In this document: piece by piece, positions 1-36,208 of the stretch
How the letters are laid out: every line of letters starts with the position of its first letter
Position numbering within the stretch: the first letter of the stretch is position 1
DNA from: an uncultured virus (IMG/VR IMGVR_UViG_2888331157_000001)
Taxonomy: Duplodnaviria; Heunggongvirae; Uroviricota; Caudoviricetes
Direction: 5' to 3' (one strand)
Length of the DNA stretch: 64,000 bases
IMG/VR virus record: IMGVR_UViG_2888331157_000001
Position numbers and translations under genes: made by a program
The notes under the pieces: model-generated
Databases searched by the model: none
What the model was told of the DNA's origin: nothing
The model's input: only the letters and a program-made list of their open reading frames with translations

Positions 1-1098
1 CTATTGGGATTTCCGCTGCTTAGGAACGGCCGGGGAAGACGCTTGTACGAATCCTGTACGAAGTGCGGCGTGTACTTTGTCCGTGGTGTCCTCGGCGTGG
101 GTGTAGGTCTTCTGCATCAATGTGATGTCAGCCCATCGTCCAGCTTTCCCCACCGTGCGCGCATCAAGCCGCTGGCGTACGAGCAACTCCGTTGCGAACC
201 CATGACGCCCTGCGGCGTGCGGCATGATCTCCGCGATCTTTGCTTTTTTGCAGGCCGTCTTCCATGCCTTGTAGCAGCCATCCTTGCCGGCATAGCCGAA
301 CATCTTCTCGATCTTGGTCCGTGTCTTCCCGTGCGGTCCCTTGCGCGGCCGACGCGGACGGAGGTTCGCCAGTTCGACAACCAGGTCCATCGGCAGGTCA
401 ACCCACTGCGCTTCTGTACCCTTCGCCTCCGGCATCCAGACGCGTGCGTTCTGCAGATCGAAATCGTCCGGCTTCAATGCTGTGGCTTGGCTGATGCGTG
501 CGCCGGTGGCGAACATGAAGTAGGCCATGGCGCGCAGATAGGGGTTCGCCTTCGTTCGAAACGCCAACAGCCATTCCCACGAGCCCGGAGTCTTCTCGAC
601 TCGGCTCTGCTTGCCGCGCTCGCGGTCCTGTTTCAGCCGTTCAGCTTTGGTGTAGGCCTTGATGCGGATAGGGGGGCATTTGCCGAGATCGTGCGCATTG
701 TTGATCACTGCGCGGATCGGCGTCACCACGTGACGTTGCCAAGAATCCGTGGCGCCGTTCGGGAAAATGATCGGGCCAAGGTTTCTGACTTCCTGAGGAG
801 TGATAGAGGGGACACTCCGGTCGGTCAGGTGCGGGAGGATCGCTTCGAGATCGTTCGCTTCCATAGGATTCGCCGGATAGAGCATCACGGCGTCCTCGAA
901 GGTCAGGGCCTTTTCTTCCCCAACGATATCACGTTTGATCTCTTTCCTTTCGAACTCTGCGAGCGCGACTTCTGCGTCCCTTTTTGGCGCTGTCGAAGGT
1001 ATTCCAGTGCTTTGCCGGTAGTATTTACCGGACGGTATCCGGTCGATCCGTCCTTTGAACCACCACCATCCGGTTCGTTCGTAGAGTTCGAGGGGCAA
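1..1098 (-). CDS. int: Tyrosine recombinase (phage integrase)
   Basis: Catalytic motifs ATGARISQA (R), PHAAGRHGFAT (H..R), GRW and KTYTH (Y); 365 aa; located at the phage edge. Confidence 0.93.
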   Translation of the reverse strand: MPLELYERTGWWWFKGRIDRIPSGKYYRQSTGIPSTAPKRDAEVALAEFERKEIKRDIVGEEKALTFEDAVMLYPANPMEANDLEAILPHLTDRSVPSITPQEVRNLGPIIFPNGATDSWQRHVVTPIRAVINNAHDLGKCPPIRIKAYTKAERLKQDRERGKQSRVEKTPGSWEWLLAFRTKANPYLRAMAYFMFATGARISQATALKPDDFDLQNARVWMPEAKGTEAQWVDLPMDLVVELANLRPRRPRKGPHGKTRTKIEKMFGYAGKDGCYKAWKTACKKAKIAEIMPHAAGRHGFATELLVRQRLDARTVGKAGRWADITLMQKTYTHAEDTTDKVHAALRTGFVQASSPAVPKQRKSQ

Positions 1099-20619: not shown

Positions 20620-21894
20620 TCAGATGCGATGCGGCATCAGCACGCCTTTCCATCCTGCGATCGATCCGGTGATCAACGCCGGCGACATTCCGTCCGACAT
20701 CGCTATCGTCACATCGCGACCGTCCGGTGCGGCGGCGGTCAGAGCATCGAGCAGGTAGCTGGAGCTGAAGCCAATCTCGATGCGCTCACCGTCATATTGG
20801 CAATCGACCTCCATCGAGCCGCCGCCGACGTCAACCTCCTTGATAGAAATCGTGAGAACGCCGCGCTGGAAGACCAGCTTCACCGCGCCGGCGTTCTTCG
20901 ACCGGATCGCGGTCACCGCCGCTACGGCACCTGCAAGGCGGCTGGCACGCACCGTGGCCAACTTGTCGGTGGCTGTTGGAATGACGCGGGCGTAGTCGGG
21001 GAACGTGCCGTCGACCGTCTTAGACAGCAGCGTCACCGGTCCCCACATGACTGCATACTTGCCCTCGGCCACCATGACCTCAACCGTTGATGGGCAATTC
21101 TTGCCCTTCAAGAGACCGTGCATCAGGTGGAGTGACGCCGCCGGAAGGATGACATTGGGCAGGGCCTTGATGCCATCGACGTCATGGATCTCCTGCCGAT
21201 AGAGCCGGTGGCCATCGGTCGCGGTTAGTGCCAGCGTGTCGCGATCGACGACATGTAGAAATGCCCCGTTCAGATAGTAGCGGGTTTCCTCGGTGCTGAT
21301 CGCGTCCTTCACGGCATCGATGGCATTCCAGAACGCGGAGCCAGGCAGCACGATCTCGACAGGCTCCGATGAGAACCCAGCGACCTCCGGAAAGTCATCG
21401 ACTGGCAGCGAGTTGATCTCGAAGTTCGCCCGGCCGAGACGGACACTCAGGCGATCGCTGACGAAGCTGTTGCGCCGCTCGTCCTCGTAGAGGAGGTTGT
21501 CGCGCTCGTCGGTCATGTGCTCGCCTGTGTCCGGATCAATGACAGGCAGGCTCCGGATCGGCGCTTCCAGCATCTCCAGCGAAAGACGGTTGCGCTCCGT
21601 CTCCGGCAACTTGCGCAGAACATCACGCAGAGCGTGCGCCGGGATGGTAGTGGCGAACTCGTCGGACACGTTCGCCCGAACGTTCACCGATACCTGCATG
21701 TCTAGATTGGTAGCAGTAAGCGTGATGCAACGGTCAATGTCGGGCGTCTTGCTCATCCGGACGTTCGACAAGATCGGGATGGTGGCGTGCTTCTCGACGG
21801 CGCCGATGATGATGCTGAGGGCCGCGAGCATGTCGTCGCGCTCCATAAGTGCAGACGGGCCAGCGTGGGAATGGACGATAGTCATGGCGTTCAC
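20620..21894 (-). CDS. dnaN: DNA polymerase III beta sliding clamp homologue
   Basis: TIPILSNV, ATNLD, LPVDDFP, STEETRYYLNG, ATDGHRL, GTFPDYARVIP, IGFSSSYLLDAL, VLMP. Confidence 0.93.
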   Translation of the reverse strand: MNAMTIVHSHAGPSALMERDDMLAALSIIIGAVEKHATIPILSNVRMSKTPDIDRCITLTATNLDMQVSVNVRANVSDEFATTIPAHALRDVLRKLPETERNRLSLEMLEAPIRSLPVIDPDTGEHMTDERDNLLYEDERRNSFVSDRLSVRLGRANFEINSLPVDDFPEVAGFSSEPVEIVLPGSAFWNAIDAVKDAISTEETRYYLNGAFLHVVDRDTLALTATDGHRLYRQEIHDVDGIKALPNVILPAASLHLMHGLLKGKNCPSTVEVMVAEGKYAVMWGPVTLLSKTVDGTFPDYARVIPTATDKLATVRASRLAGAVAAVTAIRSKNAGAVKLVFQRGVLTISIKEVDVGGGSMEVDCQYDGERIEIGFSSSYLLDALTAAAPDGRDVTIAMSDGMSPALITGSIAGWKGVLMPHRI

Positions 21895-21958
21895 AGGTTC
21901 TCTCCAGGTTGCATGATTGCAGGGGCGGCGCCCGGCCGAAGCCGAGCGCCTAGACGTT

Positions 21959-22141
21959 TCAGCTTTGCGCCAGTTCGTAGCGATCGCCGTTCTTGTCGGT
22001 GGCGATAGTCGGTACGCCGTTGGCACCACCGGTGATCTTGTCCACGCCGAGCACCTTGATCGCCTTTCCCTCAGCGTCGACGGCGTTGATGGTAATGCGG
22101 CCGCCGGCGCGCTTGGCAGTCCAACCGTTAAGCTTGTTCAT
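21959..22141 (-). CDS. Small hypothetical protein
   Basis: GGAG SD; preceded by the hairpin element. Confidence 0.65.
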   Translation of the reverse strand: MNKLNGWTAKRAGGRITINAVDAEGKAIKVLGVDKITGGANGVPTIATDKNGDRYELAQS

Positions 22142-22183: not shown

Positions 22184-24064
22184 TCACGCGCCGATCTTGG
22201 CGGCGAGTTCTCGACGTTTTGCCTTGTGCTCTTCCTCCTTCTTCTTGAGTGACTGTTTCTTGGCAGGCGCCGCCTTCTTGCCCTTCAACGCATAGCCCTT
22301 GATGCGCAGCGCAGCAGGCAGCCAGCCAGTCTCCTTCGCCTTGTCGGCCGCCTCGCGCGCCATGTCTGCCTTCTTGGCTTTGGACGAAGGATTGCCGGTC
22401 ATCTCCTTCATGGCCGCGTCGATCATGGGCTTGGTGCAGGCAGCGAACCAAGCTTCTGCATCGAAGGCCGCGACAGGATCGGCGGCGAAAGCGGTCATGA
22501 ACTCCGACCTGACCCGTTCGCGGATACCGTCGTTCGTATAATCTTTCTGGAACCACTTCTCCGTCAGGTCGATCGTCATGGCAAACAACCCGGCGACATG
22601 AGCGAGCAACTCATCGCCTGTCTTCTTCGACAGATATTCGAACGCTTTATGGATGCCTCGGCTCTTAGAGTCGCTGCGGGAACCATAACCGTATACGTCG
22701 ACACGCTGGACCTGCAGCCTGGTCGGGCGGCCGATGCCCATACAGTGTTCGTCCTGGTGCTCCAGCATCGAGGCGATGAGTGCCAGCGCCATATGCGGAT
22801 TGGCCTGCACGGCCACCTTGAGAGCTGCCGTTGACGTCTCGCCGATCTTGTCCTTGAGCGGCTGCGTTAGTGCCAGAGGGTCCTTCGTCGCCTTGGCTGC
22901 GGCAGCCAGCGGTTCGTCGCCATCATCCGCTTCGCCGTCTGCGTTGAGCTTGGCACCTGGCTTCAGGCAACCACGGCGGATGCGAAGTGTCTCCGCGTCG
23001 AAGACGATTCCGGTTGCCGCCACCTGCTCGGCCGAGAAGCAGTTCGCCTTGGCTTCAAGGGAATCGTATTCTGCGTTGAGCTTCTCAACCTCCGGATCGT
23101 CTTCCATCGCGCCTTCGAGTTCATCGGCGATGGCATCCATCCGAGCCGTTTCTTCGTTGGTGAGTTCGATGCCTGCCGGCGAGACAGCACGAACCGCATA
23201 GGCGTCGTTGATGCCAAGCTCCTCGGTTGTGGCAAAGAACGCCCAGCCTTCGGCAAGCGCTTCGGCGCGCAGCTTTTCGATGGCCTCCGCCTTCAGCCCA
23301 GGGATGAGGTCGGTACTGATCCACATCGAATCTTCGCCGAACAGATCCTCGTGGACGATACCGCCAGCCGCTTGGTAGGCGTCGACGCCGATAAAGCTGG
23401 CCAGGGCGCTGGTGGCTTCAACTGCTGTGTGCCGCATCGCGTTCTTGATGGCCCACGATTCGCCTCGATTGTAATTCCCGGCGTCATTGAAGTGTTTGAT
23501 CTGCGCGTCCTGATCGGGATTGGTGGTGTACGCGCAGGCCGCGCCGAAGTTGACCTTGCCATCCTCGAATGCCGCCAGGATTTCTGGATGCAGCCGCGCC
23601 AGCGCCAGCCGCCCCTTAACGTAACGATCAGTCTGGCCGAAATGGAGCGCAACATCCTCAACGGATTTTCCGCCCTCGACGAGTTTCAGGAATGCACGGA
23701 ACTCGTCGGCCGGCGTCATCTGCTCGCGGATCAGGTTTTCGGCGAGAGATAGTTCGGTAGCGGTTGCATCGTCGGTGTCCCGGATGGTGATTGGCACCGG
23801 GTGGTCTGACGGGAGTTTTCCCTCCTGCACGAGCTCGCCCAAGGCTATCCATCGGCGCCCGCCGGCAAAGATGCGGTAGAGCTGCCCTCCGAGATCGGCG
23901 TCGCCGGTGACTGGCGGCCGCACTGCAATCGGCTGGATGATGTCGTGCGCGAGGATCGAAGCCTTCATCTCCACGATTGCCTCGCGGCTGTGCTTCTTGC
24001 GGACGTTTGCAGCGTCGTCACGGATGAGACGGTCGAAAGGTACTTTCGGTTGTTCGGACTGCAT
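22184..24064 (-). CDS. Large ParB/RepB/Spo0J-domain protein
   Basis: NVRK, IIQPIAV, AGGRRW, LAENLIRE.M.PADE, HTH, RLALARL. Confidence 0.88.
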   Translation of the reverse strand: MQSEQPKVPFDRLIRDDAANVRKKHSREAIVEMKASILAHDIIQPIAVRPPVTGDADLGGQLYRIFAGGRRWIALGELVQEGKLPSDHPVPITIRDTDDATATELSLAENLIREQMTPADEFRAFLKLVEGGKSVEDVALHFGQTDRYVKGRLALARLHPEILAAFEDGKVNFGAACAYTTNPDQDAQIKHFNDAGNYNRGESWAIKNAMRHTAVEATSALASFIGVDAYQAAGGIVHEDLFGEDSMWISTDLIPGLKAEAIEKLRAEALAEGWAFFATTEELGINDAYAVRAVSPAGIELTNEETARMDAIADELEGAMEDDPEVEKLNAEYDSLEAKANCFSAEQVAATGIVFDAETLRIRRGCLKPGAKLNADGEADDGDEPLAAAAKATKDPLALTQPLKDKIGETSTAALKVAVQANPHMALALIASMLEHQDEHCMGIGRPTRLQVQRVDVYGYGSRSDSKSRGIHKAFEYLSKKTGDELLAHVAGLFAMTIDLTEKWFQKDYTNDGIRERVRSEFMTAFAADPVAAFDAEAWFAACTKPMIDAAMKEMTGNPSSKAKKADMAREAADKAKETGWLPAALRIKGYALKGKKAAPAKKQSLKKKEEEHKAKRRELAAKIGA

Positions 24065-26814: not shown

Positions 26815-27052
26815 TGTAGATCTCCTTGCGGTGCCATAAGTGGCGGGGTGCGGCGGTCAGGCTGCGGTATCACTCTATCGGCGCAGGACCTTCGCGCCAA
26901 GACTCTCTCGGGTCGAGCAAGCTGCGGTACCGGAGCCGAACTGGAACGCTCCGGACGTCAACCTGCTCCTCGTACTTCTTGCCGGCCTGAGTGGCGTCCA
27001 CCCACTCAGCGCCGTCATAGTCAAAGTCTGCTCTGGCCATTGTCGATGCCTC

Positions 27053-28228
27053 CTAGGCTGCGGTGAGGTAGACAGACTCTCCGAACGGCGTCTTTGCCGC
27101 CAGATCATCGAACGTTCGACTGTCGCCAAACACCGCCCAGATCACCGGGCAATTCGGAGCCTTGCCGAAATCATGAACGTAGAGGTCGGTGAAGAAAACG
27201 ACGGCGGATGCGTCACCGGCATTCTTCGATATCCACTCGAAGACGCCAGAGAACGCGGTACCGCCGCCGCCTTTTGGATCGAGTGCAAGCTCGTCACCGG
27301 CTTCATACGTCTCGACGCGCTGCACCTTCGTGTCGGCGTAGATCACGGTGATGCGATCGACCATGCCGTCGCCGAACGCGCCATTGATCTCGGATGCAAA
27401 GGCAGTCAGCGCCTTGGCGTCGATCGAGCCCGAGGTGTCGACGCACACCACCAGATGAGCAACGCCATCCGATATGACGCCAGGCAGCACCATGTTCTGG
27501 TGCAAGAACCGGCGGTTCGGCCGCGCCCACGAGAAGTCCTTCACGTTGCTCTCGTCGATGAAACGCCGCAGCACTGAGCGCCAGTCGATCACGGGCCGGG
27601 TCAGGCGATTGATCAGCCGCTTCAAGCCGGCCGGCATATTGCCCGCCATCTTCCCGTTGGCGATCGCCGCCGCCTGCCGCACCCTCGTCTCGATGTCGGC
27701 CTTCGCGTCGGCCAGGCCGGCCTCATCGAATGGCGAGCACGCGTCGATCACGCCGCCGCATCCGCCCGGGTCGTTGCCCTGCTGCTGACCGCCGCCGCCA
27801 TTCTGTTGCGCTTCCTCTTCGAGGATACGACACACCTCCTCTGCACCCATGCCAGTGAAGCGCGGATTGAGCAGGCCGCCCTTGGGCATGGAGCCGACAT
27901 TGGTCTCGGACAACTCACCGTTGATGCAGTAGTCCGCCGCGATGTTCCAAAGCCGAGCGTCGCGCATCTGCCGGCGAATGTGGTGCTGCAGCGCGTTGTG
28001 CATCACCTCGTGCGCCAGAACGAAGATCAGCTCCTGCTTGGTCAGGCTCTCCACGAACGGGCCGTGGACGTAGAGCCGCTTCCCGTCGGTGGCCATCGTG
28101 TCGATGCGCGGATCGCCCGTGGCGTCGACCAGTTCGAGCTGGATGGCGAGCGTGGCGAAGAACGGATGATCCCACAGCAGCGACGTGCGGGCGGCGAGCA
28201 ATTTGTCTTCGACTGCTTTGCTAAGCAT
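27053..28228 (-). CDS. DUF2201-type metallopeptidase + VWA-like domain protein
   Basis: PFFATL, TMATDG, HEVMH (HExxH), WNIAADYCIN; MIDAS DTSGS, GGGTAF, FTD. Confidence 0.9.
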   Translation of the reverse strand: MLSKAVEDKLLAARTSLLWDHPFFATLAIQLELVDATGDPRIDTMATDGKRLYVHGPFVESLTKQELIFVLAHEVMHNALQHHIRRQMRDARLWNIAADYCINGELSETNVGSMPKGGLLNPRFTGMGAEEVCRILEEEAQQNGGGGQQQGNDPGGCGGVIDACSPFDEAGLADAKADIETRVRQAAAIANGKMAGNMPAGLKRLINRLTRPVIDWRSVLRRFIDESNVKDFSWARPNRRFLHQNMVLPGVISDGVAHLVVCVDTSGSIDAKALTAFASEINGAFGDGMVDRITVIYADTKVQRVETYEAGDELALDPKGGGGTAFSGVFEWISKNAGDASAVVFFTDLYVHDFGKAPNCPVIWAVFGDSRTFDDLAAKTPFGESVYLTAA

Positions 28229-28529
28229 CGGGATATTCCTTCTCAACTTGCTGATGGATCATGAACGCGACAGCGGCGGAAACTTCGGCAGCGGATAGCC
28301 GAGACTTCAGTAGCGTCGCGCAGGAGAGCTTTGACCAAGTGCTCGGTTGCTGATCGGCGCGGCACGTCAACACCAGCCAACAACGATCACGGCCACGGAG
28401 ATAGAGATAGTATCGGCGGTCTCCTGACATGCGCCCGAATTGCCAGAACATCGTCGGACCCAGGCTTGTCGAAAACGACGTGGTGAACCCTGTCGGAACA
28501 AGGTGCGAAAGCCATTGCGCCCGGGTCAC
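28221..28529 (-). CDS. Paralogue-array member 7
   Basis: WQF...RYYLYL...RCW; C-terminal LLKSRLSAAEVSAAVAFMI. Confidence 0.7.
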   Translation of the reverse strand: MTRAQWLSHLVPTGFTTSFSTSLGPTMFWQFGRMSGDRRYYLYLRGRDRCWLVLTCRADQQPSTWSKLSCATLLKSRLSAAEVSAAVAFMIHQQVEKEYPDA

Positions 28530-28804
28530 GACAGCCCTCCCTCGCGGATCGAAGCCGCCATGCAGGCAGCGATCTCCGAAGGCAGGAGCATTAGCTTGAG
28601 AATTGCCACCTGACGGTCGTTGACCGCATACCTCCTCACGTGACCACCGGGCGTGAACCGCTCACATCGGTATGCCGTGAACCCGCGCTCGCTCTCCCAA
28701 TAGCGGAGTTCATAGAAGACCAGAGGAGCAACTTGGCCGGGCTTCTTGAGGTGCCATTGGAAACGACCGGCATGCTGGCACACCGTGTAGTGCTTGAGCT
28801 TCAT
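28526..28804 (-). CDS. Paralogue-array member 6
   Basis: WHL...FYELRY...RGF; ILKLMLLPSEIAACMAASI. Confidence 0.7.
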   Translation of the reverse strand: MKLKHYTVCQHAGRFQWHLKKPGQVAPLVFYELRYWESERGFTAYRCERFTPGGHVRRYAVNDRQVAILKLMLLPSEIAACMAASIREGGLS

Positions 28805-29124
28805 GACTGATCTCGCGGATCGTAGATCGAGGCGGCCATGCAGCGGGCAAGCAATTCTGGTGGCAGGGCCGCCTGGAACGCATCGACCGTATCTGCTGAT
28901 ACGGGTCCCCGGAAATCTTCCCAGCTCCCTCGGCGAGAACGAATGAAACGGATGCCGAGCGCGAAAAACCGATGTGGTGGAGAGTAGATCAGTTCGTACG
29001 TCCAGCGAGGATAATCCCAGCCACGGGTATGCCAACGGAACCTGAACTGATCGCCTTTGCAGCGCGGTCCGAACAGTTCGCGACGGATGGTTTCGGCATC
29101 AATGCACTCGATCAAATTGGGCAT
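28801..29124 (-). CDS. Paralogue-array member 5
   Basis: FGP; FRW...TYELIY...RFF; AFQAALPPELLARCMAASI. Confidence 0.7.
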   Translation of the reverse strand: MPNLIECIDAETIRRELFGPRCKGDQFRFRWHTRGWDYPRWTYELIYSPPHRFFALGIRFIRSRRGSWEDFRGPVSADTVDAFQAALPPELLARCMAASIYDPRDQS

Positions 29125-29153
29125 GATGGGTTCCTGTTTCACCAGCGGCAATC

Positions 29154-29453
29154 TCAGAACGGAAGGTCTTCCTCTTCCGGCGGCGGCGCAGTCATCGCCC
29201 TCCGCATGCATCCGGCAACATCTTCATCGGAGAGCATTCCTTGGAAGGCTTGGCGCTGCTCAGGATCATCGATGCTGACGACCTCAACTACTTTTTGCCG
29301 AGAGAGTAAGAAGCGCCTCTCCGACAACATGAAGGTGAGGAAGTAGCGGTGTTCCAGGGCCGGCGACTTCCACTTGATCGGCTCGAACCACCAACGATTG
29401 ACATCCACCTTCTTGATTTCGAAATATTCATTGATGAACTCTTGCGTCATCAT
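29154..29453 (-). CDS. Paralogue-array member 4
   Basis: WWF...RYFLTF...RRF; AFQGMLSDEDVAGCMRRAM. Confidence 0.7.
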   Translation of the reverse strand: MMTQEFINEYFEIKKVDVNRWWFEPIKWKSPALEHRYFLTFMLSERRFLLSRQKVVEVVSIDDPEQRQAFQGMLSDEDVAGCMRRAMTAPPPEEEDLPF

Positions 29454-29776
29454 CGTCCGTGTCTCCTATGAAATTCGAGTGCCAGGCGGGTGGCCTCGGC
29501 TATGTCTTCGGGCTTGAGTTTGGCGCGCAGCATGGGTGTGACGCGACCGCTCAATGGTGGTGTTGCAACCGGCAGCGCAGCCAGTTTCGCGGCCTTCTCT
29601 TCATCGCCCGGATGGCCGGGCAATGCTTTCGTGCTGAACCGACGGCTGTCGAACCAGAAGGCGAGATGCCAGCGTGCGTACTCGCCGTTCGTGCGCAGGC
29701 CGGAAAAGCTCCACGCCAGCCGATCTTCGCGACAGGTTTTGCTGCTCGGGCCCCAGATGACCTTAATCTCAGCCAT
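29450..29776 (-). CDS. Paralogue-array member 3
   Basis: WGP; WSF...RWHLAF...RRF; MLRAKLKPEDIAEATRLAL. Confidence 0.7.
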   Translation of the reverse strand: MAEIKVIWGPSSKTCREDRLAWSFSGLRTNGEYARWHLAFWFDSRRFSTKALPGHPGDEEKAAKLAALPVATPPLSGRVTPMLRAKLKPEDIAEATRLALEFHRRHGR

Positions 29777-30162
29777 CAGCGTACCGCCTTCATTGCGAGA
29801 CGGGCGGCAAAGGCGATGTCCTCTTTCGACAGGCGAGGTTTCAGGATGTCGAGGTAAGTCCGGCCGTAGAGCATGGGCTTGTCCGGAACATACGCATCGA
29901 CAAAGGCGGGGTCGAGCAAGGGCTTCTCCCACTTCCCGCCGACCTTGATGGCCTCGGCCATCGGCAGGGCGAAAGCAGACCATTCTCTTTCCCGGACCTT
30001 GAACCGCACGCACCAGCGGCCCATCGAATTGTCCTCGCGGATGCCGAAGAAATGCCAATCAACCTGTCGGACCCAACCATGTGGCGGGTTGACGACAGCC
30101 TGACCTACTCGATCTTCCGACCGCCCGAACGGTCCATAGAGGGCGCGGAGGAAGACAGTCAT
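29776..30162 (-). CDS. Paralogue-array member 2
   Basis: YGP; WHF...RWCVRF...REW; ILKPRLSKEDIAFAARLAM. Confidence 0.7.
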   Translation of the reverse strand: MTVFLRALYGPFGRSEDRVGQAVVNPPHGWVRQVDWHFFGIREDNSMGRWCVRFKVREREWSAFALPMAEAIKVGGKWEKPLLDPAFVDAYVPDKPMLYGRTYLDILKPRLSKEDIAFAARLAMKAVR

Positions 30163-30506
30163 CCTTGCCGCCTCCCCGTGATGCCAAGGGCGGTGGCAAA
30201 GCCAATCTCCGCCGCCGGCAGCATCGCCTTGAGAGCGGTGAGTAAATCGCCACGAGGCAGGTCGCTGCGCCCAATGGCGACGTGCTGGTAGAAGCGCCGG
30301 ATTGTTGAGACGTGCGCTTGATCGCCGATATCCGATTTCAGCGCCTGGACGGTGAACTTCCGCGTCTCAGCCTTGTATCGCAGCCGGTAGCGCAAAAGCT
30401 GCTGGTTGCGGTTTTCGGCCACGAACTCCCACGCCAGGTCGAAGGCTGTATATTTGCCCTCGTAGTACCGCGTCGGGCCGGCAATCCATATGATTGGCGC
30501 ACTCAT
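30159..30506 (-). CDS. Paralogue-array member 1
   Basis: AGP; WEF...RYRLRY...RKF; ALKAMLPAAEIGFATALGI. Confidence 0.7.
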   Translation of the reverse strand: MSAPIIWIAGPTRYYEGKYTAFDLAWEFVAENRNQQLLRYRLRYKAETRKFTVQALKSDIGDQAHVSTIRRFYQHVAIGRSDLPRGDLLTALKAMLPAAEIGFATALGITGRRQG

Positions 30507-30724
30507 GACGGTTGCCTGTTCTGCTGTTGCCACCAGTGGAGATAGCAGTTCCGCTGCTCCGCCTTCGGACACCCTTCCCACCACAGCCGGCACGTCCCCG
30601 GCCCGGCTTGTGGATCACGGCCGCAGGTCTTGGCGCCCTTCCGAACCGGTCGGTATGACCATGTCGACTGCAGCGGGTCATCGAACAGGCGGGGCTCACC
30701 CGCCTGCTGTGCGTTCTTGTTCAT
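30503..30724 (-). CDS. Small Cys/Trp-rich hypothetical protein
   Basis: GAGG SD; stop overlaps the next ATG (ATGA). Confidence 0.45.
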   Translation of the reverse strand: MNKNAQQAGEPRLFDDPLQSTWSYRPVRKGAKTCGRDPQAGPGTCRLWWEGCPKAEQRNCYLHWWQQQNRQPS

Positions 30725-30735
30725 CACCGGCGACC

Positions 30736-31728
30736 TCAGTTGAAGGTGACGTCCTGATTGCGGACGGCCCAATCCGTGAACACCTGCGTATGAGAAAGCT
30801 TGTTGTCGCGCCGGACCGCATCGACCGTGAACATGATCTCGAACTCGCGACCTTGGATACGCTGTGCGTAGATCATGCCGTTCTCGAAGCTCTTGGCATC
30901 CACCTTGCGGGCCAGGCCGGAAGCCATGGCGTACTTGGCGGCAGGCTCAGATGGCACCGGTGCAGAGTTCGGATTAGCAAGCACCAGATCAAGCGAAGGA
31001 AGCTGCTGGTAGACGCGAATGAACCCCTCGAACTCGGCCGCGGCGCCATCACCAACAATTCCCCTCACCGCCTCACTGCGCAGCGCTTCGGGAGCTTTGA
31101 TCACCTTGGCAACGCTCTCCCAGGCACGCGGCGTCGGGAACGCACGTAGATCGGCCGCGCCTTCCATGTTGTGCAGGAGCGCCGGCCGAAAACGCAGAAA
31201 GGCAAGCAGCAGCGGATCCACGTCGATATCGATGAAATGCTGAACCGTGGTGTCGACATCCGGGTCGATATCGATGTGAGCGAAGCGGTTGGCCAGAGCG
31301 GAAGGCATACGCTGCGCAGCCGCCTTGTCGGACTGCCGGTTGCCTGCTGCAATGATGCGCCAGCCGGGAGGCATCGTGTATTCGCCGACCTTCCGGTCCA
31401 GCACGAGACCGAAGGCTGCAGCCTGCATCGAGGGAGCCGCAACGTTCAGTTCATCCAGGAAGAGAAACCCGCGCTCGCCGTCGCGCTCCACTTGCGGGAA
31501 CTCATCCGGCACCTTCCATTTGGCAGTCTCACCCTCGACCGAGGGAATACCCATCAGCGCGACCGGGTCACGTGTCGAGCAGCGAAAGTCGATCACGTTG
31601 ACGCCCTGCTCTTTGGCGAGCTGTTTGATGAGCGAGGACTTGCCCACGCCCGGCATGCCCCACAGGAATGCGGCGAGATCGGCGTAGATGTAGAGCGACA
31701 GCAGTTCTTTGGCGCGCTTGAGGTTCAT
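30736..31728 (-). CDS. MoxR-like AAA+ ATPase
   Basis: WGMPGVGKS, FLDELN, IIAAGN, ALANRF, FPTPRAW. Confidence 0.92.
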   Translation of the reverse strand: MNLKRAKELLSLYIYADLAAFLWGMPGVGKSSLIKQLAKEQGVNVIDFRCSTRDPVALMGIPSVEGETAKWKVPDEFPQVERDGERGFLFLDELNVAAPSMQAAAFGLVLDRKVGEYTMPPGWRIIAAGNRQSDKAAAQRMPSALANRFAHIDIDPDVDTTVQHFIDIDVDPLLLAFLRFRPALLHNMEGAADLRAFPTPRAWESVAKVIKAPEALRSEAVRGIVGDGAAAEFEGFIRVYQQLPSLDLVLANPNSAPVPSEPAAKYAMASGLARKVDAKSFENGMIYAQRIQGREFEIMFTVDAVRRDNKLSHTQVFTDWAVRNQDVTFN

Positions 31729-31743
31729 TGATAGAGTTCTCCA

Positions 31744-32052
31744 TTATTTGCCATGCTTGGCGGGTTGGGATGAGGCTAGGAGTGGGGGCAGCGGCTCCAG
31801 ACGCGGAAACGGCTGTCCTATCTTGTTGAATTCGATAGTGACCCGGCGGAGGGGGTAACCCCGCGACCGTGATCGGTCCTCCCGGATCGCGTCGATCTGC
31901 GCTTGCACGTAGATCCAGCGCTCGCCGTTATCGACGCGGGGTTTGTTGTCTTCCGAATGTGTGATCAGGAACCACGCATCGGAGATTAGCTCCTTGTGTA
32001 TTTCGCCGTCGATCTCGCGGCGGACGTACTCGCCGATCGATTCTCCTGGCAT
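31744..32052 (-). CDS. Hypothetical protein
   Basis: Fills the gap in the operon. Confidence 0.5.
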   Translation of the reverse strand: MPGESIGEYVRREIDGEIHKELISDAWFLITHSEDNKPRVDNGERWIYVQAQIDAIREDRSRSRGYPLRRVTIEFNKIGQPFPRLEPLPPLLASSQPAKHGK

Positions 32053-33484: not shown

Positions 33485-33745
33485 TCAGCCGCCGCCGGTA
33501 TCAATTTCGATTGATCTGGGAGTCATTTCCTCGTCCACCCAAAACAAATCGTCTTCGCCGCAAGCGACATAAAGCACGCAGTTTGGAAGGATGGTGGGTA
33601 GAAAATTACCTTTGGCATCGATCGATGTTACGCCACAGAATGGCTGATGATCAGTGCTCGATTGCGAAAACTGACGGCGGAGACTGTCCCGGGCGCAGTT
33701 TAGAAGATCAAGGTATTGCTCGCCGGTCATACGCATCGAGGTCAC
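33485..33745 (-). CDS. Hypothetical protein
   Basis: GTGA coupling with the upstream gene. Confidence 0.5.
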   Translation of the reverse strand: MTSMRMTGEQYLDLLNCARDSLRRQFSQSSTDHQPFCGVTSIDAKGNFLPTILPNCVLYVACGEDDLFWVDEEMTPRSIEIDTGGG

Positions 33746-34650
33746 GCCAAAAAACCGGAAACCTGATCGAGGATCTTCTTCGCCTCGGCCGCCACATCCT
33801 TGCGGACACCTTCGTTCTCGCGCAGCACTTGCGCGTCCCAGGCGGCGAGCGGACGCAGGCGATCGACCATGGCGGTCAGTTCCGGATCACCAGTGATGTT
33901 CAGCATCGGCAGCACTTCGATCAGGTCGCGGACGTTGAGGACGAGCGAGTCGCGGAAGGCGCCTTCCGTCTGGTCTCCTTTACGCGCGGCGGGGCGGTAG
34001 GCGGTAAGCCGTTCCGCCATCCTGCCGGCGACATCGGCGACACGGCGATAGACATCACGGACCGCGGTGGCCGCACCCTCGCGCACCTGGCGCTCGATAT
34101 CCGCCCGGATGACGTCCGCTTGAGCTTCGGACATTGAGACACGGAAGTCTTCCGGCGTCGGCACGGGCAGCTTGCGCAACTCCATGCTGTAGCGATCGCG
34201 CAGTGAGTCGACCGTTGGATAGTCGGCGTCCTTAAACAGGCCGGACATCCGGTCCGGAGCGCTGCGGACCAGTTCCGGATATGAGGCGATGAACTCGCCC
34301 ACGGCGTCCATGAATTTCTGCTTCTGGAGCGACAGCCAGCGGTCGTTCGCCATGATCGCGGCCGCATTCATGATCCGGCCGCCGCCATCCATCCAAGGCA
34401 GAGTGCGCTTGTCGAACTCGGCGCGCGTGGCGCTGACGATCGACTGGATCGGTTGCAACGCCTCCTTCGGCAGCAGCAGCTTGTTGAACCGGCCGGCGTC
34501 GGCAGACGCACCATGCTCGCGGTTCACTTCGTCGGTGATCTGGCGATCGAGGCGACGGCCAGACCACTGCGTGATGTGCAGCGACACGACCACGGCGCGC
34601 GCAGCGAGTGTGGCGGTGACGGATGACGGAATACGGGCATGAGCGTTCAT
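33742..34650 (-). CDS. DUF3150-like protein (frequent neighbour of MoxR/VWA genes in mobile elements)
   Basis: VSLHITQWSGRRLD...KLLL...TLPW...YP...F/Y; family call from memory. Confidence 0.65.
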   Translation of the reverse strand: MNAHARIPSSVTATLAARAVVVSLHITQWSGRRLDRQITDEVNREHGASADAGRFNKLLLPKEALQPIQSIVSATRAEFDKRTLPWMDGGGRIMNAAAIMANDRWLSLQKQKFMDAVGEFIASYPELVRSAPDRMSGLFKDADYPTVDSLRDRYSMELRKLPVPTPEDFRVSMSEAQADVIRADIERQVREGAATAVRDVYRRVADVAGRMAERLTAYRPAARKGDQTEGAFRDSLVLNVRDLIEVLPMLNITGDPELTAMVDRLRPLAAWDAQVLRENEGVRKDVAAEAKKILDQVSGFLA

Positions 34651-34742
34651 GCTTCTGGTCTCCATGGGTGCCATGATTGGCGGGGTTAAACGACAGAGCG
34701 ACCTATCGCTTGACGAGAACGTGCCGTGAACGTGGCACGGAG

Positions 34743-35117
34743 TCAAGGCGCTTCTTTGTACCGTGGCGTGTCAGGCAGCACGCCGACCATGCGCACGCGC
34801 GTGGCGTCGGCAATATCCTCACCTGTCAGCAGCGAGATCGCGGCGTCCACCAGCCTGTCACCCTTGAAGCGCGGGAAATCGAGCGAGGGATAGGCGTAAA
34901 TATCGGCAGGGATTTTGTATCGCTCGAAATTGGATGAATACGTCTGTGGCACGTCAAAGTATGGACGTGAACGCGCGGCGGCGCGGCGTGTGACCGCGTC
35001 GACCGTTACCTCTTGACGGCTCTGGAATCCGGCTTCGCCAATGAAGACGAACCAGAATTTCAGTTTTGAGGCTGTCACCTGCCGCGCGTAGGGACCAATC
35101 AAGAGATGTTCCATCAT
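34743..35117 (-). CDS. Outlying paralogue-array member 8
   Basis: IGP; FWFVF; C-terminal AAISLLTGEDIADATRVRM. Confidence 0.6.
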   Translation of the reverse strand: MMEHLLIGPYARQVTASKLKFWFVFIGEAGFQSRQEVTVDAVTRRAAARSRPYFDVPQTYSSNFERYKIPADIYAYPSLDFPRFKGDRLVDAAISLLTGEDIADATRVRMVGVLPDTPRYKEAP

Positions 35118-36175: not shown

Positions 36176-36208
36176 AAAAAAGGCCGCGCGACAGAAGCCG
36201 CGCGGCTG
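36176..36208 (-). terminator. Intrinsic terminator after the first gene of the leftward operon
   Basis: Minus strand GCCGCGCGGC-TTCT-GTCGCGCGGC-CTTTTT. Confidence 0.75.

Follow-up and report, generated by a model that had tools for sequence, protein, structure and literature searches.

What do seven small genes, barely alike in sequence, do between a phage gene for a MoxR ATPase and the gene for its VWA-metallopeptidase partner? The question is raised by a 64,000-nucleotide stretch of DNA recorded as an uncultured Caudoviricetes virus (IMG/VR IMGVR_UViG_2888331157_000001; hereafter the window), which is G000:C1:1220641-1284640 of a 6.02-Mb genome in two contigs. On its minus strand, seven consecutive and tightly packed open reading frames (ORFs) of 92-128 aa, here named A to G, fill positions 28221-30506. 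A first-pass annotation, made from the sequence alone, had taken them for a tandem array of highly diverged paralogues and had suggested that they are interchangeable specificity adaptors of the MoxR/VWA pair. We found that these genes, together with an eighth one, H, belong to a family of small proteins not described before, which is linked to a phage module that is known but whose role is unexplained.

Eight small genes encode one diverged protein family

The seven ORFs of the array are mostly coupled, as the first-pass annotation had claimed: the overlaps A/B, B/C, C/D, E/F and F/G measure 4, 1, 4, 4 and 4 nt, respectively, the single gap (29 nt) lies between D and E, and the stop codon of G overlaps the ATG of the VWA gene (28228) by 8 nt. 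The seven C-terminal strings quoted in that annotation were all found in the translations. The eighth member, H, was first spotted by eye and then confirmed by a profile search, which gave exactly eight family matches in the whole 6.02-Mb genome, all of them in the module operon (coordinates are given in Table 1).

Pairwise BLAST within a database of the seven array proteins linked A to C (1e-6), B to C (6e-8), D to E (2e-3), E to F (1e-4) and A to G (0.04). The shared skeleton that had been read from the window extends to 121 aligned members, among which W-x-F / [WY]-x-L-x-[FY]-x4-R-x-F / L-x3-L-x-P-E-D-I-A forms a family signature: aromatic residues occupy 100% of position 22, 97% of position 24, 93% of positions 36 and 40 and 98% of position 47, while G9-P10 is conserved in 88% of the members, L38 in 91%, R45 in 93%, L87 in 91% and A93 in 89%. 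We further scored each protein with leave-out profiles, built without the window proteins and without any sequence sharing 30% or more identity with the protein under test, using 200 shuffles as a control. With these profiles, whose training set came from a search profile that itself contained the window proteins, the scores were 71.5 bits for C, 68.6 for B, 56.0 for A, 41.6 for E, 40.2 for F, 27.6 for H, 26.7 for D and 16.8 for G, compared to at most 9.7 bits for the best of 200 shuffles overall and at most 5.7 bits for the shuffles of G itself. G is the weakest member, an orphan with no relative beyond its own cluster. A profile built from D-, E-, F- and G-type proteins only matched C with an hhalign probability of 95.4% (E 2e-8).

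The proteins also share a predicted fold. AlphaFold2 models were obtained for C from the 121-row alignment (pLDDT 88.8, pTM 0.73) and for E from a 45-row alignment holding no A, B or C types (pLDDT 89.9, pTM 0.79), and both contain a core of four antiparallel strands (a beta-meander), a short strand and two C-terminal helices, to which model C adds an insert helix and model E an N-terminal helix. Two independently aligned subgroups arrive at the same confident predicted fold. The eight genes are true, very diverged paralogues encoding small, mostly basic alpha+beta proteins (median isoelectric point, pI, 10.0; 90% above 8; n=201; D is the exception) with variable inserts and tails.

Most simply, the conserved alternating aromatics of three strands, the near-invariant Arg and the helix hydrophobics (L83, L87, A93 and position 100) would make up the core of the fold, the hydrophobics of the helix pair packing on the aromatic face of the sheet. 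The conserved docking helix proposed in the first-pass annotation is weakened by this, as the conserved positions of the helix pair look like fold core. Variation sits in the inserts, the other sheet face and the tails, which fits a family of diversified binders.

The array genes are real and under purifying selection, and change 2-6 times faster than the flanking enzymes, as judged by comparing the window to a close relative, the metagenome contig L115 (Table 1; synonymous change, dS, is near saturation, so the values are rough).

The small family is rare and absent from current catalogues

To place the family among known proteins, we used a profile of 16 sequences (the eight of the window and eight from two related viral contigs) against 1.84 billion representatives. 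It matched 182 of these at E<=1e-3 and 56 at E<=1e-10, marking the family as rare; among the 150 matches listed, 146 are 70-154 aa long and aligned over nearly their full length. The four long matches (990-1981 aa) were rejected as members, being tandem Tudor, pentaxin/LamG or other repeat proteins that had summed up weak stretches. C has only seven close relatives among 5.8 billion clusters, one of which carries the source label of a hypothetical protein from an Aquamicrobium metagenome-assembled genome.

None of 121 family members matched Pfam, and NCBIfam returned no family and one stray match for the same set. None of the eight small proteins matched PHROGs or PADLOC, the latter being equally silent on the MoxR, VWA and DUF3150-like proteins of the module. 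No match was obtained by tblastn of B against 50,697 phage records, by tblastn of C against 72,556 plasmids or by megablast of the region against phages and plasmids, and scans of viral contigs with the single proteins P0134 and P0116 yielded no locus. No paper on the small family was found in the literature on phage MoxR/VWA, DUF2201, DUF3150 and MoxR-linked anti-defence.

Structure searches gave a similar picture. Foldseek against PDB and BFVD returned nothing at E<=0.001 for either model, and in a wide VIA-align search the best Z was 4.9 for model C and 4.5 for model E, with none standing out among rows of WD40 blades, PUR-alpha, levivirus coats, SpoVG and RWD/polo-box-like proteins, and no fold name is assigned. 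Three candidates were set aside: the best hit of a PDB sequence profile search (Rai1, E 0.024) was judged to be due to chance; ESM Atlas rows were given no weight, the Atlas model itself having a pLDDT of 0.40 and feature scores (0.80) at chance level; and a truncated DUF3150 identity was dismissed after hhalign of the 121-sequence profile against a 43-sequence DUF3150-like profile (probability 0.25%, E 0.25).

The family is confined to an N4-type MoxR/VWA operon

The flanks named in the first-pass annotation, a MoxR ATPase and a DUF2201 zincin-VWA protein, were borne out, the latter with both its HExxH and MIDAS motifs intact. The ATPase matches the Pfam families AAA (7.9e-7) and AAA_5 (1.6e-5), is 31% identical to gp24 of coliphage N4 (E 5e-45) and has homologues in 835 phage records, and the VWA protein matches DUF2201_N (4.2e-45) and DUF2201 (4.5e-23) and is 29% identical to N4 gp25 (E 6e-44). 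The two are thus homologues, within one operon, of the N4 gp24/gp25 pair (PHROG 1297 and 1314; DUF2201_N plus DUF2201), which often has a DUF3150-like third gene. The spacing of the pair sets the window apart: gp24 and gp25 of N4 (L118 939-3307) are 167 nt apart, whereas 2.5 kb and seven family genes separate their window counterparts, and at most genomic loci MoxR and VWA are, unlike here, adjacent or parted only by DUF3150. The third gene of the window module is DUF3150-like by a match below the cut-off (Table 1); among its homologues, 7 of 18 match PF11348 at E<=0.01 and 1 of 18 scores above the cut-off, and such homologues accompany VWA in 59 of 80 loci.

The window VWA protein keeps H73, E74 and H77 as well as the MIDAS residues D264, S266, S268, T324 and D348. 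Across 79 VWA homologues, the five MIDAS residues, H77 and H82 are present in 79/79, H73 in 71/79 and E74 in 70/79. About a tenth of the zincin-VWA homologues have lost H73 or E74 of HExxH (8/79 and 9/79, respectively), and since MIDAS is invariant while H73 and E74 are sometimes lost, the VWA/MIDAS function seems more universal than proteolysis. Residues of the VWA protein specific to the clade of array-bearing phages (282-291 NGAFGDGMxD, A325 and an insert at 371-376) were not taken as evidence, shared ancestry being enough to expect them.

By profile search, members occur in 3 of 300 further genomes from the same taxonomic family and in 0 of 400 from the class; all eight matches in those three genomes adjoin VWA, MoxR or DUF3150 homologues, and no member was found away from the module in these 700 genomes. 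A set of 80 genomic loci was collected via alignment of the VWA protein, and the family is present in all eight of those with a VWA identity of 52-60%, found in records named Mesorhizobium, Hoeflea, Brucella tritici, Rhizobium, Peteryoungia, Phyllobacteriaceae and Rhizobiaceae. The same layout recurs in the viral contigs L003 and L004, in L115, in the fragment L116 and in the viral contig L119, the last reached from the diverged representative P0141 (L003 and L031 are the same phage DNA). Wherever neighbouring genes were visible, homologous arrays were linked to MoxR/VWA genes: the family was seen only within the MoxR / zincin-VWA / DUF3150-like operon of the N4 gp24/gp25 type, in temperate phages whose hosts are of the Rhizobiales type.

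The gap between MoxR and VWA contains one or more members at all the loci seen, the last of them abutting or overlapping the start of VWA. A comparison across related phages showed that array length and content vary, from one copy in the gap (L026) to the seven of the window. The order of subfamilies is broadly kept: A comes first, B and C follow, whichever of the two leads, D or E is next, and F comes after these. An A-type gene comes first after MoxR in L026, L034, L038 and L039, and in L115 and L119 it is so placed by position and sequence only; H-type orthologues occupy the same position in L026 and L038 as in the window. The description of the array as inserted between MoxR and VWA holds for its main site and needs widening for the rest, because members also occur after VWA and beside the DUF3150-like gene; the gap is therefore the main, not the only, site. 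Some relatives have a second cluster of members up to ~3 kb downstream of VWA (L039 10892-12045, a tandem of three; L038 10247-10531; L004 8173-9014), of which the window has none.

Partners of the module or independent effectors

What these proteins do can be proposed from their sequences and setting. We tentatively favor a role in which the small proteins bind other proteins as interchangeable partners (adaptors, baits or clients) of the machine formed by MoxR and the VWA-peptidase, a role whose chances we would put somewhat short of even. The points counted for it are purifying selection, the common fold, the operon linkage, the tight coupling into VWA and the C-terminal tail of D, which is described below, together with the general principle of MoxR-vWA systems and an anti-defence lead from phage Bas54, both also taken up below.

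Several observations weigh against such a partnership, and many of them are equally at home with another explanation, that the small proteins are independent host-takeover or counter-defence effectors (binders, decoys or inhibitors) gathered in plasticity slots, with no physical link to MoxR or VWA; we regard this as possible, if rather doubtful. First, shared ancestry by itself would lead one to expect co-occurrence within a single phage lineage, and it does not count as independent evidence. Second, the MoxR/DUF3150/VWA module is complete without the family in 72 of the 80 loci, all those with a VWA identity of <=48%, relaxed thresholds included; their order is commonly MoxR, DUF3150, VWA, or MoxR followed directly by VWA, and in the nearest array-free clade, where MoxR and VWA abut, there are no sub-threshold matches either. 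Third, members stand in several operon slots and not in the gap alone, being found after the VWA gene in L035, L039, L040 and L004 and beside the DUF3150-like gene in the window, L026, L038, L039 and L004, with members on either side of that gene across the set. Fourth, in the N4-like Vibrio phage VBP47 (L117 3559-6732) the gap holds an HNH gene and two small hypotheticals, known by annotation only, and on its far side, where the VWA partner is expected, lies a 433-aa annotated hypothetical placed by position alone. The MoxR-VWA slot may therefore be a plasticity region or a recurrent insertion slot. Lastly, the conserved positions of the family fit a hydrophobic core, and an exposed docking patch that is conserved is not apparent. 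Independent effectors would also suit the fast evolution of the family, its varying copy number and its restriction to a lineage, and the tail of D could serve them as a free decoy for partners of SSB, the protein that binds single-stranded DNA.

Independent effectors fit less well with the gap being occupied at every locus seen, up to the start of VWA, or with the confinement of the family to the module among the 700 genomes searched. Furthermore, the small proteins have no match to catalogued defence or anti-defence families (PADLOC, Pfam, PHROG and NCBIfam).

D carries a tail resembling the tip of host SSB

The partnership with the module gains its most specific element from D, whose C-terminus (29154-29174) reads EEEDLPF and resembles the tip of the host SSB, ELDDEIPF. 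Among the genome's 37,536 frames measured from stop to stop and 80 aa or longer, only 2 close with [DE][DE][ILVM]PF, those of SSB and D. The host has a single SSB (L111 1282-1824; the sole PF00436 match in the genome, at C1:4955655-4955963), and D itself has neither an SSB OB-fold domain nor any Pfam match. The SSB-like tip is kept in all three full-length D-type orthologues, reading DPDDIPF in L034 and EDDGIPF in L115; besides one F-like representative, P0116, which ends in NDDLPF, only the D subfamily carries such a tail. The C-terminal hexapeptide of SSB is described as a conserved interaction motif (PMC5872125). As the tail of D resembles this motif, at least one subfamily presents a recognisable host-protein-binding peptide on the common scaffold.

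A partial precedent is found in prophage DUF669 proteins, ssDNA-binding proteins described as having DDDIPF-like ends and thus, like D, phage proteins of non-SSB fold with an SSB-tip motif; their authors suggest that they plug into host SSB-partner interactions (PMC13687109). Unlike them, D belongs to another small family, one with no Pfam match.

Several E/F-type members (P0096, P0140, P0151 and L035:3740-4135) have C-terminal extensions of their own, with motifs such as ...HIPF..., ...YLPFRK and ...LPMLP. These short hydrophobic motifs may be further docking peptides.

The same tail, taken together with the charge of the family, could be read differently, the small proteins being nucleic-acid-binding proteins of phage DNA metabolism, of the PC4, Whirly or PUR kind, and D a mini SSB analogue that brings SSB-partner enzymes to phage DNA. 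We consider this improbable. It would account for the strongly basic character of the family, for the weak likeness that model C shows to PUR-alpha (3k44 at Z 4.8, with an rmsd of 1.8 across 45 residues, and 3nm7 at Z 4.5) and Whirly, at Foldseek E of 0.086 or above, and for the appearance of PC4 among the Atlas structure rows; DnaN-like, ParB-like, HNH and methylase-like genes are found in the operon as well, and the DDDIPF-like ends of the ssDNA-binding DUF669 proteins are again in keeping with it (PMC13687109). However, all the structural matches have Z <5, no PUR, PC4 or Whirly row was returned for model E (best Z 4.5), and the Atlas rows come with the low pLDDT and chance-level feature scores given above. 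The conserved aromatics, moreover, appear to fit a buried core rather than a binding platform, and D is acidic (pI 4.9).

The distribution of SSB genes argues in the same direction. The prophage itself is without an SSB gene, whereas an SSB gene (PF00436, 3.4e-36) is present in the related phage L003/L031, which lacks a D-type member. Across the 14 loci listed (13 distinct), however, SSB and D-type genes show no clear complementarity: SSB occurs only in L003/L031, and 9 of the 14 show neither gene within the stretch seen.

A possible mechanism and its relation to known systems

If the small proteins are indeed partners of the module, each paralogue would engage a different host protein via its variable surface or tail, and the ATPase and the zincin-VWA protein would remodel or cleave the protein so engaged, early in infection or induction. 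D would be the clearest case among the copies: its tail copies the SSB tip, a peptide that SSB uses to recruit enzymes of replication and repair, and D would thereby capture, or compete for, SSB-partner proteins.

AAA+ protease adaptors such as SspB, ClpS and MecA present one surface to the machine and another to the substrate, and so widen or redirect substrate choice. The logic proposed here is alike, yet no sequence or fold relation to these adaptors was found in the family and structure searches above, and the machine of the window consists of MoxR and a separate zincin-VWA protein, not of Clp or Lon.

A closer parallel is offered by the vWA-MoxR ternary conflict systems, described as systems in which vWA domains capture substrate peptides, MoxR remodels and variable third components define the system (Kaur, Burroughs, Iyer and Aravind 2020, PMC7159879). 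Like the window, they combine MoxR, a vWA co-chaperone and diversifying proteins thought to set specificity. The systems described there differ in being cellular, in having VMAP, iSTAND, FtsH or beta-propeller partners and in bearing effector domains on the vWA protein, whereas the module studied here is phage- or plasmid-borne and its vWA protein has a zincin. Pfam scans of 24 operon proteins detected no VMAP, iSTAND, FtsH or beta-propeller domain, and bpMoxR remained under its 27-bit cut-off (15.4 bits, E 0.0096).

A bolder form of the proposal, which we think unlikely, would make the MoxR/zincin-VWA pair a phage- and plasmid-borne programmable remodeller or protease whose targets are set by exchangeable small partners; in this Rhizobiales phage lineage the present family would supply those partners, with each paralogue delivering a different host protein, and D would use its SSB-like tail to hand over SSB-interacting repair, restart or nuclease proteins, disarming DNA-based defences of the host. 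That defence proteins are among the targets is speculation. Its only indirect support is a transposon screen in which overcoming a predicted defence system reportedly required a MoxR ATPase gene carried by phage Bas54 (2025 preprint, bioRxiv 10.1101/2025.11.20.689424), a gene likened to that of the window by the MoxR label alone.

Alternatively, MoxR and VWA could form a virion-assembly chaperone or protease, with the small proteins as its clients or substrates (scaffolds or processed pro-peptides). Virion assembly with peptidolytic processing has been proposed for a jumbo-phage pair of MoxR and metallopeptidase-vWA proteins (Iyer et al. 2021, PMC7824862), a source that also cites a MoxR-vWA system needed for tail assembly of an archaeal virus. 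The module of the window, however, shares its leftward operon with ParB-like, DnaN-like, HNH and methylase-like genes, and this operon diverges from the block of terminase, portal, capsid and tail genes at 38-61 kb. VWA homologues are found on 119 plasmid records, 30 of them typed conjugative, and plasmids make no virions. On account of this operon context and of the plasmid copies, we hold a role in virion assembly to be very unlikely.

Prophage and operon context

The stretch carries a temperate siphovirus-type prophage, as shown by its gene content and Pfam scans (Table 1). The leftward operon runs in the order H, DUF3150-like gene, several small genes, MoxR, A-G, VWA, small genes, HNH_3, methylase-like, ParB-like and DnaN-like genes. 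A strong terminator-like hairpin upstream of it probably bounds, on the upstream side, the transcription unit to which H, the DUF3150-like gene, MoxR, A-G and VWA belong.

Table 1. Features of the window, with divergence from the relative L115 (identity, protein identity; dN, nonsynonymous change; omega, dN/dS; dN and omega are rough, dS being near saturation)
Feature	Position	Strand	Description	Identity	dN	omega
A	30159..30506	minus	115 aa; first in array	68%	0.24	0.24
B	29776..30162	minus	128 aa; ATGA overlap with A; L115 orthologue	75%	0.16	0.10
C	29450..29776	minus	108 aa	55%	0.45	0.49
D	29154..29453	minus	99 aa; pI 4.9; C-terminus EEEDLPF	70%	0.21	0.23
E	28801..29124	minus	107 aa; compared to E-like gene	48%	0.49	0.40
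F	28526..28804	minus	92 aa; ATGA overlap with E; compared to F-like gene	40%	0.60	0.22
G	28221..28529	minus	102 aa; most diverged; stop overlaps VWA start			
H	34743..35117	minus	124 aa; eighth member, immediately upstream of DUF3150-like gene			
MoxR-type AAA+ ATPase	30736..31728	minus	330 aa; Walker A GMPGVGKS, Walker B LFLDELN; phrog_1297, 1.2e-87	87%	0.09	0.11
Zincin metallopeptidase-VWA protein	27053..28228	minus	DUF2201_N with HEVMH, DUF2201 VWA with MIDAS DTSGS...T...D; phrog_1314, 1.9e-98	87%	0.07	0.08
DUF3150-like protein	33742..34746, probable start 34650	minus	third in module; PF11348 E 0.024, 14.4 bits, below 24.9-bit cut-off	87%	0.08	0.14
Terminator-like hairpin	36183..36206	minus	strong; 10 pairs, 9 G-C, T run; upstream of operon			
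DnaN-like sliding clamp	20620-22029		all three beta-clamp domains; same leftward operon as MoxR/VWA module			
ParB-like protein	22184-24064		ParB_N, 626 aa; same leftward operon as MoxR/VWA module			
Integrase	1-1098					
Helicase, YqaJ-type exonuclease, primase, AAA_25 helicase genes						
HNH, terminase, portal, prohead protease, capsid, tail tube, tape measure, GpJ-like tip, GDSL-esterase tail fibre	from 38.4 kb	plus				

Between the MoxR stop and the A start lies a spacer of 229 nt (30507-30735). At ~30686-30706 on the minus strand it contains a G+C-rich hairpin with 8 perfectly paired bp (CAGGCGGG / CCCGCCTG) that lacks a T run, and it is also overlapped by a frame of 89 codons (30503-30772) whose coding status is doubtful. 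Of five relatives checked, four (L026, L034, L038 and L039) have an A-type gene directly after MoxR, and in the fifth, L115, a spacer of several hundred nt precedes the A-type gene.

The 5 kb at 27000-32000 are present word for word (share 1.00) in 20 public runs from 10 studies, contigs of uncertain library type and none of them on record as RNA, under at least five organism labels that include cold-seep and pig metagenome libraries. The strain or its prophage is therefore either widespread or a frequent contaminant.

Implications for the MoxR/VWA module

The MoxR / zincin-VWA pair is among the most widespread unexplained phage gene pairs. A family confined to the operon of this module would supply candidate partners or targets and would make the machine experimentally approachable, with eight baits at hand, of which D, through its SSB tip, points to the host replication and repair interactome. 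In view of the transposon screen that implicated a phage MoxR ATPase in overcoming a predicted defence system, the array may help to account for target choice by a machine of this kind. Should the proteins act alone, they would still constitute a new fold family of phage host-directed proteins.

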